Shown piece by piece: positions 2,596 through 7,259 of a stretch of DNA of 32,000 nucleotides. Where the stretch lies: contig NZ_FMXQ01000004.1 of NCBI RefSeq assembly GCF_900104485.1, forward strand, positions 355,898 to 387,897. The letters are read 5' to 3'. The translations under genes were made by a program, and so were the position numbers. This stretch comes from Bauldia litoralis. Its GTDB lineage: Bacteria; Pseudomonadota; Alphaproteobacteria; Rhizobiales; Kaistiaceae. Below the pieces are notes generated by a model. That model worked only from the letters and a program-made list of their open reading frames with translations, searched no databases and was not told the origin of the DNA. Within the stretch, counting starts at the first letter, position 1, and every line of letters starts with the position of its first letter.

Positions 2596-3273
2596 ATGAC
2601 AGAGGCGAGGACCGCCGAACGGATCGCGCTGATCGCCGCGATCCGCGCGGCGACGGCCGCGATGCTGCCCGACACAGCGGCGACACGGTTCCACAAGGCG
2701 ATGGACCGGCTCGGCCGCCTGCTGGCCGAGCGCGACCTCGAGCGGCGGTACAATCCGGACTGGGCGTCGCAACCGCGTGTCCCGAGCGGCAATCCCGGCG
2801 GTGGTCGATGGACGGATGGTGGTCCGTCGATCATCGGAGAGGAACTTAACCCGTCAGCGTTCGAGGAGCAGGTTTCGGACGAACCGATTGGCGAAGAGCC
2901 TCCAGGCGTTCCGACCGTGCGGCCGGAGAAGGCACGTCGACGCAACAGATACGTGAAAGAGATCGCCCGGTGGCTCCTGCGGGGCACGCGGGTCGGTGTT
3001 CGTCTTTCGCCAATCGGTCGGGCCTTGGACATATACGAGGCGGGGCTCTGGATTCACGACCATTGGTCCTTCATCGAGGCATACCAAGACGAGCCAAAGT
3101 CTCTGGGAGAACTACGTGCGGCTGCCTCTCAGCGGAGAAAGGGATACGATATCCATCATATTGTCGAACGAGCGTCGGCCCTTGAGGATGATTTCCCTTT
3201 GTCGCGAGTCGATGGCGCGGAGAACCTAGTGAGTATTCCGACTTTGAAGCATTGGGAACTCAATCGTTGGTAA
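2596..3273 (+). CDS. Modular protein with C-terminal HH...N...H (HNH/EndoVII AHH/GHH-like) domain; putative nuclease toxin, truncated by an in-frame TAA (frame continues to 3396)
   Basis: ATG 2596 is 8 nt after the protease stop. The N-terminal ~75 aa are host-like in GC, followed by a Gly/Pro junction RVPSGNPGGGRWTDGG and then a low-GC C-terminal part. Signature residues are DIHHIV (HH codons 3154-3159), AENLVSIP (Asn 3223-3225) and KHW (His 3250-3252). TAA at 3271-3273 is followed by 40 more open codons ending at TGA 3394-3396. Confidence 0.55.
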   Translation: MTEARTAERIALIAAIRAATAAMLPDTAATRFHKAMDRLGRLLAERDLERRYNPDWASQPRVPSGNPGGGRWTDGGPSIIGEELNPSAFEEQVSDEPIGEEPPGVPTVRPEKARRRNRYVKEIARWLLRGTRVGVRLSPIGRALDIYEAGLWIHDHWSFIEAYQDEPKSLGELRAAASQRRKGYDIHHIVERASALEDDFPLSRVDGAENLVSIPTLKHWELNRW

Positions 3274-3392
3274 GAAATGAAAAACCCAAACTTCGGCTGG
3301 CTGACGCCAAGGCAATATGCCCGGGGGAAGGATTGGCCCACGCGCCTTAGACTAGGACTGGATGGGCTGAGAGACATAGGAGTCCTTGAGCG

Positions 3393-3764
3393 ATGAGTGG
3401 GGCTAGTCTCGACAGGAGATCGATCGAGGAACTCGTCGACCGCTACGCCGCGACGGGTGTGGCGCAAGACGAGGCCGAACTCAATGACGACATCGGCAAA
3501 TACAACCGCCTCGTCGACGACATCATCGCCGTGGAAGCGGAGCTGAAATCGCGAGCTGGCGATCAGCGCACGGCACTAATGAAGCTGTACGACCACCCCA
3601 ACATGCAGGTCCGCCTAAATGCTGCGCACGCCACGCTTGCGGTCGCACCCGAGGCGGCCCGGGCGCTGCTGATGACCATCCGGGAGTCGCGGTGGATGCC
3701 TCAGGCCATGCAGGCCGGGATGTCCCTGCGGAACCTGGAGAACGGCGTCTATCGGCCGGATTGA
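3393..3764 (+). CDS. DUF2019-like all-helical small protein; candidate immunity/antitoxin partner
   Basis: 123-aa ORF. LYDHPNMQVRLNAAHATLAVAPEAARALL and PQAMQAGMSLRNLENGVYRPD match my memory of DUF2019 proteins (HEAT-like helices). ATG 3393-3395 overlaps TGA 3394-3396 of the extended upstream frame (ATGA junction). GC is lower than the flanks. Confidence 0.7.
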   Translation: MSGASLDRRSIEELVDRYAATGVAQDEAELNDDIGKYNRLVDDIIAVEAELKSRAGDQRTALMKLYDHPNMQVRLNAAHATLAVAPEAARALLMTIRESRWMPQAMQAGMSLRNLENGVYRPD

Positions 3765-3790
3765 GTGATCGAGGGTTTTCGAATTGGGTG

Positions 3791-4155
3791 GGGCGCTCGA
3801 CGGGTTGTCGATCGGCTACCGGACGGTGCGCGGCCGCACCGACGCCAAGACCGGCATCCGCAGCCTGATCGAGGTCGACCTGTGGGAGATCTCGGTGGTG
3901 ACCTTCCCGATGCTGCCCGAGGCGCGGATAGAGGCGGTGAAGAGCGGCGACCGCGCCGCGCTGCTCTCCGCGATCCGGCCGGAGACGGCGGGGATGCGGG
4001 TGGGCTAGGGGCGGCGGCATGACAGAGCGAGGACGCCGAACGGTCCGCGCTTATCGCCGCGATCCGCACGGTGACATGCGCGCATCCCGACCCTGAAGCA
4101 CTGGGAGCTTAACAGCTGGTATGAAAGGCGGAATGGAGACTATGACTGGCTGACG
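3791..4155 (+). pseudogene. Degenerate second cassette: duplicated protease 3' end plus frameshifted 5' end and 3' end of a sister toxin-like gene
   Basis: 3791-4070 aligns to 2371-2650 at an offset of 1420. 2379-2507 equals 3799-3927, with 129 of 129 identical. Identity then falls to about 83% (2521-2580), and indels follow the ATG (4019). 4093-4155 encodes LKHWELNSWYERRNGDYDWLTP, homologous to 3244-3310 of the intact copy. The middle of the gene is deleted. Confidence 0.85.
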
Positions 4156-4185
4156 CCTCTGCTGGCGCGCCCGAAGATCGGATTG

Positions 4186-4698
4186 TCACTTGGCAGGATG
4201 CTCGCGAGGCTGCTGCTCGCGCTCTTGCCGCAGCTCTTCCGTCACTTTGTCCGCCAGTCGCCACAGAACGCGGGCGAGACTTTCTGCAAGATCTATATAC
4301 GGGGCGATTATTTCGGGACTAAGAGGCGTGGCTTTGCCGTCAAAACGGTGCTTCCCTCGGAAGGTGACCACCTCAAAATTTCCATCTTTGTTGGTGCCTA
4401 TCACGCCATGCGCGAGGTCGTTGCGGAATGCCACAAGCCGGCCCGCTTCATTGGTGAGTTTCAAGGTGTCGGCGTATGCTTCCTTCGTCCAGTGCTTCTT
4501 GGCGAACGCATCAAGTAGTTCGAGTTTCGATCTCGCCTGCATGCCGCTGAGGACCACTTGCGCCTGAAAGCCGGATAGTGCCAGAGCGGCGGCGACGGCA
4601 GTATTGAGTGCCAGGTCGAAGCCTGAGAAGTTCAGAAACAGCGCGCCGACTTGATGGGCCATCGCAATCTTGATTTTTGGATCTGGTTCCTTGGGCAT
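4186..4698 (-). CDS. HEPN-motif protein (Rx4H: R-N-D-L-A-H-G), putative RNase toxin / abortive-infection-type effector
   Basis: 170-aa ORF on the minus strand, predicted all-helical. FRNDLAHG is encoded at 4408-4425 (reverse complement CGC AAC GAC CTC GCG CAT) and fits the canonical R-N-x-x-x-H HEPN active-site motif. GC is about 53-58%. No obvious MNT or antitoxin partner is adjacent. Confidence 0.6.
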   Translation of the reverse strand: MPKEPDPKIKIAMAHQVGALFLNFSGFDLALNTAVAAALALSGFQAQVVLSGMQARSKLELLDAFAKKHWTKEAYADTLKLTNEAGRLVAFRNDLAHGVIGTNKDGNFEVVTFRGKHRFDGKATPLSPEIIAPYIDLAESLARVLWRLADKVTEELRQEREQQPREHPAK

Positions 4699-4872
4699 GA
4701 CAAAGAAGCCTCAAAAAGATGACCTAGCCGAAGGGCGACGCATTGCCGAGCGCATGCATCAAGATGCCGCCCGACCCGCACCCCGGTAAGAACTCGTTAA
4801 CCAAAGGCAAGGTACCGAAGAAAGGCGACGACCGGGTTGAGGCCGGCCGCCGCCCCAAGAAGAAGTAGTTAC

Positions 4873-4983
4873 CTACTTCCTCTTAATGGTCTCGACGACA
4901 TGTGTGTTGGGTTTCCCCGTTGCCGTCTTGACCGTGGTGAAGCGACCGGTGACGGCGCTTCTCCCGATTTTGCTGGTGGCCAT
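4873..4983 (-). CDS. 36-aa basic mini-protein MATSKIGRSAVTGRFTTVKTATGKPNTHVVETIKRK
   Basis: Below the ORF-track length cut-off. ATG (reverse complement of CAT 4981-4983) lies 7 nt after a consensus AAGGAG (reverse complement of CTCCTT 4991-4996). The S-x-x-T/S-G-R-F-V/T pattern resembles a widespread family of tiny bacterial proteins of unknown function. It has the same orientation as the HEPN gene, 174 nt upstream of it. Confidence 0.45.
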   Translation of the reverse strand: MATSKIGRSAVTGRFTTVKTATGKPNTHVVETIKRK

Positions 4984-5197
4984 TGGATTACTCCTTTGTC
5001 ACCCGAGCGGATGGACCGCTCGCCCTGAGACGCCCCGTGCGCCTCCAGCCGTCAAGGGCGCGGGCGAACGCGAATCAGATCGCAGGTTGAGTATACCAAG
5101 TCAGGGCTTCTGGCGGTTGCGCCAGCGCATGAAGTGACGGGCCTTCTGGCGAAGTGTCTTAGGCTCCACCAATCCGCCGACAATTAGGAATAAATTC

Positions 5198-5228
5198 CTT
5201 GACAGCGTGACGCTGGTCTGGCAATCTT
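5198..5228 (+). promoter_or_regulatory. Sigma-70-like promoter candidate (CTTGACA-N17/18-CAATCT) with an AT-rich upstream tract
   Basis: CTTGAC at 5198-5203 matches the alphaproteobacterial -35 consensus. It is preceded by CAATTAGGAATAAATTC. The -10 (CAATCT 5222-5227) is weak. Confidence 0.3.
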
Positions 5229-5233
5229 TGGCT

Positions 5234-5326
5234 ATGGTCAGAGAGGTGCGGGTGCGGGGCCTACGCCTGACGATCGAACCCAAGTGATTCTGGAAATGCG
5301 GTCGGGTTTTGCCCGGCCGTTTTTTT
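5234..5326 (+). ncRNA. Candidate ~90-nt small RNA or leader bounded by the promoter-like site and an intrinsic terminator
   Basis: The predicted start is ~5233-5236 and the end is the T-run at 5326. There is no ORF with an SD inside. GTCAG (5237-5241) can pair with CTGAC (5266-5270). No match to any RNA family I recognise. Confidence 0.25.
5299..5326 (+). terminator. Rho-independent terminator
   Basis: CGGTCGGG (5299-5306), loop TTTTG, CCCGGCCG (5312-5319). This is an 8-bp stem with one G-U pair, followed by T7 (5320-5326). Confidence 0.6.
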
Positions 5327-5396
5327 GGCGGAGCGTGGGAGCGCGCCCTCCGTCGCCGCTTCGCGGCGCCACCCCCGATCAGGTCGAGGGCAGGCT

Positions 5397-5417
5397 CTCC
5401 CCCGCTTCGCAGGGGAG
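5397..5417. repeat. Palindromic element, family 3 (CTCCCC-CGCTTCGCA-GGGGAG)
   Basis: The reverse complement recurs at 11317-11341 (TCCTCCCCTGCGAAGCGGGGGAGGA). Confidence 0.6.
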
Positions 5418-5520
5418 GAGCCAGGAGGCGCCGTCGCGCATGCCAGGCCGGCGCACGGTCGCACCGCGGACCCGGCACCGCGAATACGAAAACATGACAC
5501 CACGAGAAAGGAACCACCGC

Positions 5521-6765
5521 ATGACGCATGCTCCCCAGCCTGCGCCGGAGGCCAAGGCGGCCGATGGCGAGATGACCAGTGCCTTCGAGACCTTCAACCG
5601 GACCTTCGCGGCGTTTCGCGCCGAGAATGACGACCGGCTCGAGCAGATCGAGCGCAAGCTTTCCGCCGACGTGGTGACGGTCGACAAGGTCGATCGCATC
5701 AACCGGGCGCTCGATGAGCAGAAGCGGGCTATGGACCAACTCGTCCTCAAGGGGCGGCGGCCGGCGCTGGAGACCGGCGGATCGCGGGTGGTGACCTCGC
5801 CGGAGCACAAGGCGGCCTTCGAGGCCTATGTGCGCGGCGGCAACGAGGAGGCGCTGCGCGGTTTCGAGCAGAAGGCGCTGGCGGTGGGTTCCGACGGCGG
5901 CTACGTCGTGCCGGAGGAGACCGAGCGCGAGATCGGCCGGCGGCTGGCGAGCGTCTCGCCGATCCGGGCGATCTCCGGCATCCGCCAGGTGTCGTCCAAC
6001 GTCTACAAGAAGCCCTTCGCCATCACCGGTGCGGCGACCGGCTGGGTCGGCGAGACCGCGGCGCGCACCGAGACGGCGGCGCCGACGCTGGCCGAACTCT
6101 CGTTCCCGGCGATGGAACTCTACGCCATGCCCGCGGCGACGGCGACGCTGCTCGACGACAGCGCCGTCGACATCGACGCCTGGATCGCCGACGAGGTCGA
6201 GACCGTCTTCGCCACGCAGGAAGGCACGGCCTTCGTCACCGGCGACGGCACCAACAAGCCGAAAGGGTTTCTCAGCTACACCACGGTGGCGGAAGCCTCC
6301 TGGGCCTGGGACAAGATCGGCTACCTGGTCACCGGCGTCTCCGGCGCCTTCGCCGCCTCCGACCCGTCGGACGAGCTGATCGACCTGGTCTATGCGCTGA
6401 AATCCGGCTACCGGCAGAACGCCCACTGGGTGATGAACCGCTCGACGCAAGGGGCGGTGCGCAAGCTCAAGGACGCCGACGGCAACTACATCTGGCAGCC
6501 CTCGGCGGTGGCCGGCGGCACGCCGACGCTGATGAACTTCCCCGTCGCCGAGTCGGAGGACATGCCGGACATCGGCGCCGACACGTTCGCCATCGCCTTC
6601 GGCGATTTCCGCCGCGGCTACCTGGTCGTCGACCGGGTCGGCGTGCGGGTGCTGCGCGATCCCTATTCCGCCAAGCCCTACGTCCTCTTCTACACGACCA
6701 AGCGGGTCGGCGGCGGCGTCCAGGATTTCGACGCCATCAAGCTCCTGAAATTCGGCACGTCCTGA
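5521..6765 (+). CDS. Major capsid protein, HK97 family (RcGTA g5-like)
   Basis: ATG 5521 follows AAAGGA (5507-5512); an in-frame ATG at 5494 is the alternative. The 414-aa product has an N-terminal coiled delta-domain-like region (FAAFRAENDDRLEQIERKLS) and blocks such as GGYVVPEE, TGWVGE and FVTGDGTNKPKGFL typical of HK97-fold capsids. Confidence 0.92.
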   Translation: MTHAPQPAPEAKAADGEMTSAFETFNRTFAAFRAENDDRLEQIERKLSADVVTVDKVDRINRALDEQKRAMDQLVLKGRRPALETGGSRVVTSPEHKAAFEAYVRGGNEEALRGFEQKALAVGSDGGYVVPEETEREIGRRLASVSPIRAISGIRQVSSNVYKKPFAITGAATGWVGETAARTETAAPTLAELSFPAMELYAMPAATATLLDDSAVDIDAWIADEVETVFATQEGTAFVTGDGTNKPKGFLSYTTVAEASWAWDKIGYLVTGVSGAFAASDPSDELIDLVYALKSGYRQNAHWVMNRSTQGAVRKLKDADGNYIWQPSAVAGGTPTLMNFPVAESEDMPDIGADTFAIAFGDFRRGYLVVDRVGVRVLRDPYSAKPYVLFYTTKRVGGGVQDFDAIKLLKFGTS

Positions 6766-6826: not shown

Positions 6827-7037
6827 CGGGGCCGCCTGACTCTTTGCCCGGTGGATGCGCGGTGCGTCCGTCGAGGCTCCGCTGCGCGGAGCACCTCCGG
6901 ATGGCGGGGGAGGTGCCTAGGACAGCGGTTGTCATGCTGAGGCGCGCGCTGGAGGCGCGCCTTGAAAACGCGCGGGACCGTGGCCACCGGCAGATCGCCG
7001 GCGGGGACGAGTCTCGCCGAAGACGCTCCCCACACAC

Positions 7038-7145
7038 CGTCATCCTCCGGCTTGACCGGAGGATCGGTCTTTACCCGGCGCTCCGCTCGATCTGCAGGCG
7101 CCGTGCCGGCGAACAGCGATCCTCCGGTCAAGCCGGAGGATGACG
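7038..7145. repeat. RIME/REP-like element, family 2: two 29-bp hairpins in inverted orientation
   Basis: CGTCATCCTCCGGCTTGACCGGAGGATCG (7038-7066) is the exact reverse complement of 7117-7145. Each arm is itself a hairpin. Confidence 0.85.
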
Positions 7146-7259
7146 GTTGAGTGGGTGATGGTGTCGCGTGCGCTGGATGGCGGCGCACAGGCTGGATCGC
7201 GGCAGCGGACCCTCCGGGCGGAACGCGCCCATCAATCGCAAAACGGGAAGGACCTCACC

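Follow-up and report, generated by a model that had tools for sequence, protein, structure and literature searches.

A divergent gene, very probably of the HEPN superfamily and likely a remnant of IS1595 transposon cargo, between the protease and capsid genes of a Bauldia litoralis gene transfer agent cluster

An opposite-strand gene in the head operon

The 32,000-nucleotide (nt) stretch of Bauldia litoralis DNA considered here, referred to throughout as the window (contig NZ_FMXQ01000004.1, positions 355,898 to 387,897), contains a plus-strand head-tail cluster of the RcGTA type, that is, of a gene transfer agent (GTA). Pfam matches across the cluster were to Phage_portal, Peptidase_S78, Phage_capsid, Phage_connect_1 (the connector), Phage_tail_2 (the tail tube), DUF2460, Gp84_N plus BR0599, and GTA_TIM plus Phage-tail_3 plus Rcc01698_C. 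Between the protease and capsid genes, and surrounded by the cluster, sits a minus-strand gene at 4186 to 4698 encoding a protein of 170 amino acids (aa). We call it the HEPN gene, after the superfamily to which its product very probably belongs. The protein is a 100% match to a B. litoralis "hypothetical protein" (P0001), and the UniRef label of the identical protein reads "MAE-28990/MAE-18760-like HEPN domain-containing."

The open reading frame (ORF) begins with ATG, and an in-frame TGA lies five codons upstream. Its GC content is 56.5%, compared with 68.3% for the whole window, and its GC content at third codon positions is 63%, compared with 90 to 92% for the portal and capsid genes. Because of these departures from the window and from the GTA genes, the gene is compositionally foreign. 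The ratio of nonsynonymous to synonymous substitution (dN/dS) was 0.18 in comparison with a relative of 71% identity and 0.25 in comparison with a relative of 54% identity, taken from loci L001 and L004. The ORF is a genuine gene, horizontally acquired. An earlier note on this DNA, made from the sequence alone, had described a minus-strand ORF of 170 aa at these coordinates, with about 53 to 58% GC and an orientation opposite to the GTA operon, and the ORF list, the measured composition, and the Pfam-identified plus-strand cluster all agree with that description.

No sigma-70-like promoter was found in positions 3900 to 5600 by a scan that covers alphaproteobacterial promoter types poorly. Rfam models on 3000 to 6000 gave just one match, to a microRNA, at chance level, and a transfer RNA scan found none.

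Motif, fold, and family membership

HEPN domains are defined by an Rx4-6H motif with a polar residue (N, D, or H) directly after the arginine, and in them this motif closes the third long helix at its C-terminal end (PMC3710099). In the B. litoralis protein, the corresponding Rx4H signature is R92-N93-D-L-A-H97, encoded at 4408 to 4425 on the minus strand. The earlier note had assigned these positions to the longer string FRNDLAHG; they fit RNDLAH (4425 to 4408), and the full FRNDLAHG is encoded at 4428 to 4405.

A word-indexed search returned a single relative, of 71% identity. An exhaustive HMMER search of 1.84 billion cluster representatives yielded 61 proteins at E < 1e-3, mostly of 150 to 220 aa. 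Across 46 homologues with 20 to 71% identity to the query, R92 and H97 were invariant, and N93 and K58 were each kept in at least 90%; the closer relatives also share an invariant F113, G115, and R118. The motif takes the canonical form [FY]RNx[LIF]AHG in the family. The R-N-x-x-x-H pattern to which the earlier note had drawn attention is thus conserved beyond chance.

An AlphaFold2 model built from the alignment of 46 sequences reached a mean predicted local distance difference test score (pLDDT) of 97.3 and a predicted template modeling score of 0.89. It contains helices at residues 7 to 38, 43 to 50, 55 to 69, 72 to 97, and 128 to 162, with three strands within 99 to 125. RNDLAH forms the final turn of helix 72-97, which is the third of four long helices, and so the position that the earlier note had called typical is borne out by a model of high confidence. 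The agreement with HEPN topology was judged on the order of secondary-structure elements alone. The three-stranded beta insert after the motif is specific to this family, and the long last helix lies beyond it.

HEPN families took the top Pfam places throughout, whether the query was the protein, its relatives, or the consensus sequence of the family. The protein itself matched HEPN_MAE_28990 (PF18737) at an E value of 0.056 and 14.1 bits, and two family consensus sequences matched the same model at 15.7 and 17.5 bits, all under the gathering threshold of 26.8. The consensus of the family hidden Markov model matched RiboL-PSP-HEPN (PF18735) at an E value of 1.5e-5 and 25.4 bits, under the cut-off of 28.4, and then MAE_28990, Swt1, and Cthe_2314 HEPN. 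Weak Pfam matches were seen among the relatives to RiboL-PSP-HEPN (12 of the 46, best E value 0.003) and to MAE_28990 (10 of the 46), and other relatives matched the Csm6, Cthe_2314, Apea, and Swt1 HEPN models. By Pfam thresholds, then, the protein is a member of neither the RiboL-PSP nor the MAE_28990 family. It had no match in NCBIfam, PHROGs, or PADLOC, and in PADLOC-DB v2 this held at E values up to 1. The PADLOC matches of its relatives were weak (E values of 0.001 to 0.06) and mostly to HEPN-containing models such as Csx1/Csm6, CARF-HEPN, RT-HEPN, Cas13a, and AbiJ. Searches with tblastn of plasmid and phage collections gave no match to the protein, and a scan of IMG/VR gave no relative.

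Comparison of the model with the PDB by Foldseek gave nothing below an E value of 0.1, and sequence searches of the PDB with the protein, the family profile, profiles of two small neighboring ORFs described below, and the family of a 306-aa protein also described below gave no relevant match. The best structural neighbor, found in BFVD, was an unnamed viral protein of 159 aa (A0A4Y5TZQ9; template modeling score 0.65 to 0.69, E value 1.7e-3, 16% identity). This neighbor suggests that there are phage-encoded relatives that the sequence searches of phage collections missed.

Such results leave some room for an unrelated helical protein that is not a HEPN nuclease and uses its R, N, and H residues for another role, for example in binding or in regulating transposition. 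The HEPN sequence matches are all below threshold and centered on the motif, and the nearest fold is that of the viral protein and not of a solved HEPN structure. Against this, the exact canonical [FY]RNx[LIF]AHG stands at the canonical topological position, and several independent HEPN models are top-ranked, so we consider such a protein improbable. The HEPN assignment proposed in the earlier note is upheld by the motif, the helix topology, the leading Pfam families, and the UniRef label; it is not backed by any score above threshold or by any solved HEPN structure recovered by Foldseek. We conclude that the protein very probably belongs to the HEPN superfamily, as a separate, uncurated family whose closest groups are RiboL-PSP and MAE_28990.

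IS1595 cargo, small neighboring genes, and the junction in the window

In homologous loci, the HEPN gene is cargo of IS1595-family elements. An IS1595-type transposase (Zn_ribbon_IS1595 plus DDE_Tnp_IS1595) adjoins it in L006, L007, L008, and L013/L014; another is encoded on the 8-kb contig that carries the homologue P0064, and a fragment remains in L003. Inverted repeats with the consensus AATTATATACTTGAC bracket the segment from the transposase to the HEPN gene in L006 (1272/4065), L013 (3531/5561), and L003 (5129/6558). The HEPN gene is therefore the final cargo before the right end of the element, and the right inverted repeat lies 45 to 70 nt past the HEPN stop codon in L001, L003, L004, L006, and L013. 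The layout outside the window reads: left inverted repeat, transposase, sometimes a small gene that we call ORF A, variable genes, a divergent small gene that we call ORF B, the HEPN gene, and the right inverted repeat. The variable genes include a HigB/Gp49-HTH pair in the L006 element, and an AbiEii gene adjoins one HEPN homologue. In L002, a tyrosine integrase gene stands beside the homologue. The truncated element of L003 separates a P22-like portal gene from the remaining head genes and is on the opposite strand, an arrangement that resembles that of the window.

Two of these loci show further features. In L013, a Mg-chelatase/ChlI (comM-like) gene at 811 to 918 and 5549 to 6418 is split by an insert of about 4.6 kb, the right-hand 2 kb of which is the IS1595 element with the HEPN gene at its end. 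The matches to the L008 homologue (1920 to 2412) fall in three frames, and it is probably a pseudogene; on either side of it is an IS1595 transposase copy, the two copies having the same orientation, in the manner of a composite transposon.

ORF B encodes a basic protein of 40 to 60 aa with the pattern MAKPPK..RRMLxTPPKPHK.. and is divergent from the HEPN gene. It is intact beside the HEPN gene in six loci (L001, L004, L006, L007, L008, and L013), where it is adjacent but not cotranscribed with the HEPN gene, and on two further contigs a gene of 46 aa is called at its position. It remains next to the HEPN gene even in family members of as little as 27% identity and is a more consistent neighbor than ORF A; in L002 and L005, no ORF B was recognizable. 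The start codons of the HEPN gene and ORF B share two bases in the sequence CATG, found at 4696 to 4699 of the window and in L001, L003, L004, L006, L010, and L013, which makes it invariant in seven of seven aligned loci. Because of this overlap, the upstream region of each gene lies inside the coding sequence of the other, and leaderless or mutually exclusive transcription of the two genes is a possibility.

In the window, ORF B is split. An N-terminal fragment (MTKKPQKDDLAEGRRIAERMH..) occupies 4697 to 4789 on the plus strand, its ATG overlapping that of the HEPN gene, and a C-terminal part in the +1 frame (MPPDPHPGKNSLTKGKVPKKGDDRVEAGRRPKKK), corresponding to the PPKPHK part of intact ORF B, occupies 4764 to 4868 on the same strand. 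The split is due to one extra base near 4758 relative to L001. The frame of ORF B is likewise disrupted in L003 (5805 to 6010) and L010 (1745 to 1942), each time, as in the window (4697 to 4868), at a different position; L010 and L011, which are independent assemblies, carry an identical lesion. The earlier note had found only a 36-aa ORF upstream of the HEPN gene, and to this must be added the divergent small ORF at 4697, conserved elsewhere and broken here.

The 36-aa ORF is ORF A, which encodes a basic protein at 4873 to 4983 on the minus strand, with an AAGGAG Shine-Dalgarno sequence at 4991 to 4996. Its family comprises at least 152 protein clusters of 36 to 46 aa from Rhizobium, Bradyrhizobium, Vibrio, and other taxa, none with a Pfam annotation. 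In comparison with the Rhizobium and Bradyrhizobium copies, nonsynonymous divergence (dN) was about 0.1 and synonymous divergence (dS) was saturated, the differences being nearly all synonymous. ORF A was not found in the phage collection, and the plasmid collection gave one unannotated Alteromonas match in an uninformative context. In the window, L003, and L010/L011, ORF A is on the strand of the HEPN gene and 170 to 190 nt upstream of it. The disruption of ORF B coincides exactly with these three distinct loci that have ORF A upstream of the 170-aa HEPN gene, and in loci without ORF A, ORF B is intact. This pattern could reflect decay of ORF B once ORF A had taken over its function, or an unusual mode of expression.

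Both small genes also recur beside other cargo. In Rhizobium, ORF A is found upstream of a very distant protein of 184 aa with the sequence RHWTTH. In L023 to L032, ORF A directly follows the IS1595 transposase, and the cargo slot holds a different gene pair; in this sister element (L023, 1342 to 3824; also L024 to L032), a 306-aa protein with RNPIAH is encoded on the other strand, and the 3' end of its gene overlaps an intact ORF B of 62 aa by 4 nt. Bradyrhizobium ottawaense (L017, 3001 to 4104) has, next to ORF A, a 292-aa relative of that protein (29% identity, E value 1e-34) with RNPLMH. Neither the 306-aa nor the 292-aa protein had a match in Pfam or PADLOC. We do not claim that these are HEPN proteins, as an hhalign comparison with the HEPN family aligned only the 15-residue motif, at 1% probability. 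Because ORF A and ORF B both recur beside alternative cargo, they resemble backbone genes of a transposon lineage, and alternative RNxxxH proteins occupy the slot next to the right repeat.

These arrangements bear on whether the HEPN gene acts alone. The earlier note had suggested a solo or unconventional effector; its observation that no MNT gene is adjacent holds for the window and for the homologous loci examined. The suggestion itself, as worded, is not supported: the gene lies in a recurrent IS1595 cargo module with two conserved small ORFs. A self-contained, single-gene effector similar to abortive-infection (Abi) proteins, inactive until infection and with the small ORFs as transposon backbone unrelated to its control, is possible, although we doubt it. 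It would account for ORF A directly following the transposase even in elements that lack this HEPN gene, for the three distinct loci in which ORF B is broken and the HEPN gene is intact, and for L002 and L005, where ORF B could not be recognized; single-protein HEPN Abi systems, namely AbiD/F, AbiJ, and AbiU2, have also been described (PMC3710099). It accounts poorly for the adjacency of ORF B down to 27% identity, for the invariant CATG overlap, for ORF B being coupled with another RNxxxH protein as well, and for the lack of a PADLOC match.

The copy in the window keeps only the right-hand cargo, that is, ORF A, the frameshifted ORF B, and the HEPN gene. No IS1595 transposase was found in the window by tblastn, nor was the inverted repeat of the element, with up to three mismatches allowed. 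Homology to the copies borne by insertion sequences runs from ORF B through the HEPN gene and ends about 28 nt past the stop codon, at about 4158 to 4161, in alignments with L001 and L004; this conserved 3' tail (..GATCTTCGGGCGCGCCAGC) occupies 4158 to 4185 on the minus strand and stops short of the expected right inverted repeat. On the other side lies a displaced cassette remnant at 3790 to 4157 on the plus strand, recognized through repeat families D1, D2, and D4. It holds a copy of the 3' end of the protease gene (3790 to 4015, 93%), with a Peptidase_S78 match at 3784 to 4008, and fragments of a 225-aa gene (4025 to 4157). Homology to the duplicated cassette reaches as far as 4157 (repeat D4, 3235 to 3308 against 4084 to 4157), so the two homologies abut. 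The junction is accordingly a scar left by deletion or recombination rather than a transposition end, because transposon homology stops before the right repeat and cassette homology begins there. The earlier note had placed the limit of the cassette homology at about 4155 and had suspected a second insertion or deletion event at this point; the limit lies at 4157, where the 3' tail of the HEPN gene starts, and the abutting homologies support such an event.

The losses in the window raise the possibility that the gene is a decaying, nonfunctional relic, silent or nearing loss after the transposon shed its transposase, its repeats, and ORF B. The absence of transposase and inverted repeats, the frameshift in ORF B, and the lack of a sigma-70-like promoter in 3900 to 5600 fit such a relic, which we regard as unlikely: the ORF of 170 codons is intact with all conserved residues in place, dN/dS against the closest relative is 0.18, and the promoter scan is weak on alphaproteobacterial promoter types. 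An orphan immunity gene of the displaced polymorphic-toxin cassette was also considered, since the HEPN gene comes directly after what is left of the older toxin gene, the place in which one would look for an immunity gene. We rejected this origin, which is effectively refuted by the opposite strand, the different composition, and the context of the homologues, which lie in IS1595 elements, beside an integrase, or in a P22-like prophage and never after such toxins; the conserved boundary of the module also falls exactly at the junction.

At 2596 to 3764, the GTA protease gene is followed by the 225-aa ORF and then by a gene for a DUF2019 protein (3393 to 3764, E value 9e-35). The C terminus of the 225-aa product (..GYDIHHIVE..NLVSIPTLKHWELNRW) appears HNH/AHH-like by eye and gave no Pfam match, and the pair resembles a toxin-immunity cassette between GTA genes g4 and g5. 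The displaced copy has TAT where the 225-aa gene has its stop codon TAA (3235 to 3308 against 4084 to 4157), and protein similarity runs in frame past that stop (W*EMKNPNFGWLTP against WYERRNGDYDWLTP). The stop codon at 3271 to 3273 may thus truncate a longer ancestral toxin ORF reaching 3277 to 3396.

Farther along the cluster, a terminator-like hairpin with a T-run (GCGGTCGGGTTTTGCCCGGCCGT TTTTTTGG) occurs at 5298 to 5320 on the plus strand, about 200 nt before the likely capsid start (5494 to 5521); a single site of this kind in the region scanned does not exceed chance expectation. An inverted repeat of 36 nt (7036 to 7071 and 7112 to 7147, 94% complementary, with a spacer of 40 nt) lies between the capsid and head-tail connector genes, and another, of 54 nt and 78% (1786 to 1839 and 1941 to 1994), lies within the 5' end of the long protease ORF.

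Proposed function and comparison with known systems

Taken together, these data make it likely that the locus holds a divergent HEPN gene, a remnant of IS1595 cargo joined to an older toxin-cassette remnant in the protease-capsid gap of the GTA cluster, and that its product is a ribonuclease (RNase) toxin or abortive-infection effector. A transposon would have brought the gene, and a deletion or recombination joined the right-hand cargo to the cassette remnant. Characterized HEPN enzymes are metal-independent RNases whose motif histidine and arginine are essential and which leave 2',3'-cyclic phosphate ends (PMC3710099). By analogy with them, the B. litoralis protein is most likely a metal-independent RNase, in which H97 would serve as general base and R92 and N93 would stabilize the transition state. 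HEPN enzymes act via paired HEPN domains, and the protein would probably be a dimer. We infer that the mobile element uses it as an addiction toxin or abortive-infection effector and that ORF B, as a small basic partner, would normally restrain it. RNase activity and toxicity are inferred, as are an antitoxin role for either ORF B or ORF A and any influence on GTA or phage. The toxin or defense role fits because other cargo is of toxin type, because ORF B is coupled to a second RNxxxH protein, and because toxin-antitoxin pairs have a precedent in Tn3 elements.

Several observations weigh against this reading. All Pfam HEPN scores fall below the curated thresholds and center on the motif region, Foldseek matched no solved HEPN structure, and the PDB sequence-profile search with the HEPN family gave no HEPN. 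The divergent orientation of ORF B, together with its loss here beside an intact HEPN gene, speaks against a simple obligatory antitoxin.

A bolder and, as a whole, rather unlikely proposal is that an undescribed IS1595 cargo module combines ORF A and ORF B with an exchangeable RNxxxH effector (either the 170-aa HEPN protein or the unrelated protein of 292 to 306 aa) and acts as a toxin/antitoxin or abortive-infection switch. Its divergent, overlapping CATG starts would possibly give leaderless transcripts from mutually exclusive promoters. The broken partner in Bauldia would leave a rewired or unguarded HEPN RNase in the GTA head operon, which could gate GTA production or exclude phages.

The UniRef HEPN label of the protein was already available, and mobile elements are well known to carry HEPN toxins; the gene belongs to a known class of toxin and defense genes and is not a novel kind of system. 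What is added here is the delineation of the family, its status as IS1595 cargo, the two conserved micro-ORFs with the CATG start overlap, and the reading of the copy in the window as a transposase-less remnant in the GTA protease-capsid gap. An isolated motif match thereby becomes a defined, rare family (61 representatives among 1.84 billion clusters) with a recognizable lifestyle, as IS1595 cargo beside the right inverted repeat with two conserved micro-proteins that gene callers mostly miss. The gap itself emerges as a landing pad for selfish cargo: besides a toxin-immunity cassette, it holds remnants of a displaced cassette and of a transposon, and this cargo may affect head-gene expression.

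IS1595-family insertion sequences with passenger genes are recognized in the ISfinder classification and have a DDE_Tnp_IS1595 transposase and terminal inverted repeats that enclose the extra genes. The module described here differs in its HEPN-type cargo with ORF A and ORF B, of which no description was found, literature searches on IS1595 passenger genes having given nothing specific, and in that the copy in the window has lost its transposase and both repeats.

Among HEPN families, RiboL-PSP-HEPN (PF18735) and the MAE_28990-MAE_18760-like group (PF18737) share with the present family the RNxxxH motif, the polar residue after the arginine, and the position at the end of helix 3 (PMC3710099), and no other Pfam models score better with the protein, its relatives, or the consensus sequence of the family. 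They differ in that the scores stay under the cut-offs (14.1 to 17.5 against 26.8 bits; 25.4 against 28.4 bits) and in the three-stranded beta insert that comes after the motif. The contexts listed for MAE_28990/MAE_18760 (operons with a ParB nuclease and a methylase, ParA/Soj, and N-terminal fusion domains) were not seen here. The single-gene Abi proteins with HEPN domains (AbiD/AbiF, AbiJ, AbiU2, and AbiV) are similarly carried on mobile elements without a dedicated enzyme partner. They differ in that PADLOC gave no significant match, the AbiJ model matching weakly and from just one relative, in that the present protein is much shorter than most of them, and in that its small-ORF neighbors are conserved. 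HEPN-MNT (DUF86) pairs likewise involve a small HEPN protein with Rx4H that is carried by mobile DNA and taken to be an RNase toxin; in place of an adjacent nucleotidyltransferase gene, however, the recurrent neighbor here is a divergent gene for a basic protein of 40 to 60 aa.

Toxin-antitoxin pairs sit inside Tn3-family transposons, near the transposition functions (PMC7157771). The present case resembles these in having toxin-type genes inside a transposon, including the HigB/Gp49-HTH pair in one IS1595 relative. It is unlike them in the element, whose DDE transposase has an N-terminal zinc ribbon, in the HEPN type of the toxin, and in a partner that is divergent and overlaps the toxin gene at its start. 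If the RNase and its small partners do form a toxin-control or defense module, IS1595 would join Tn3 as a carrier of addiction or defense functions, and the module would offer a compact three-gene system for testing.
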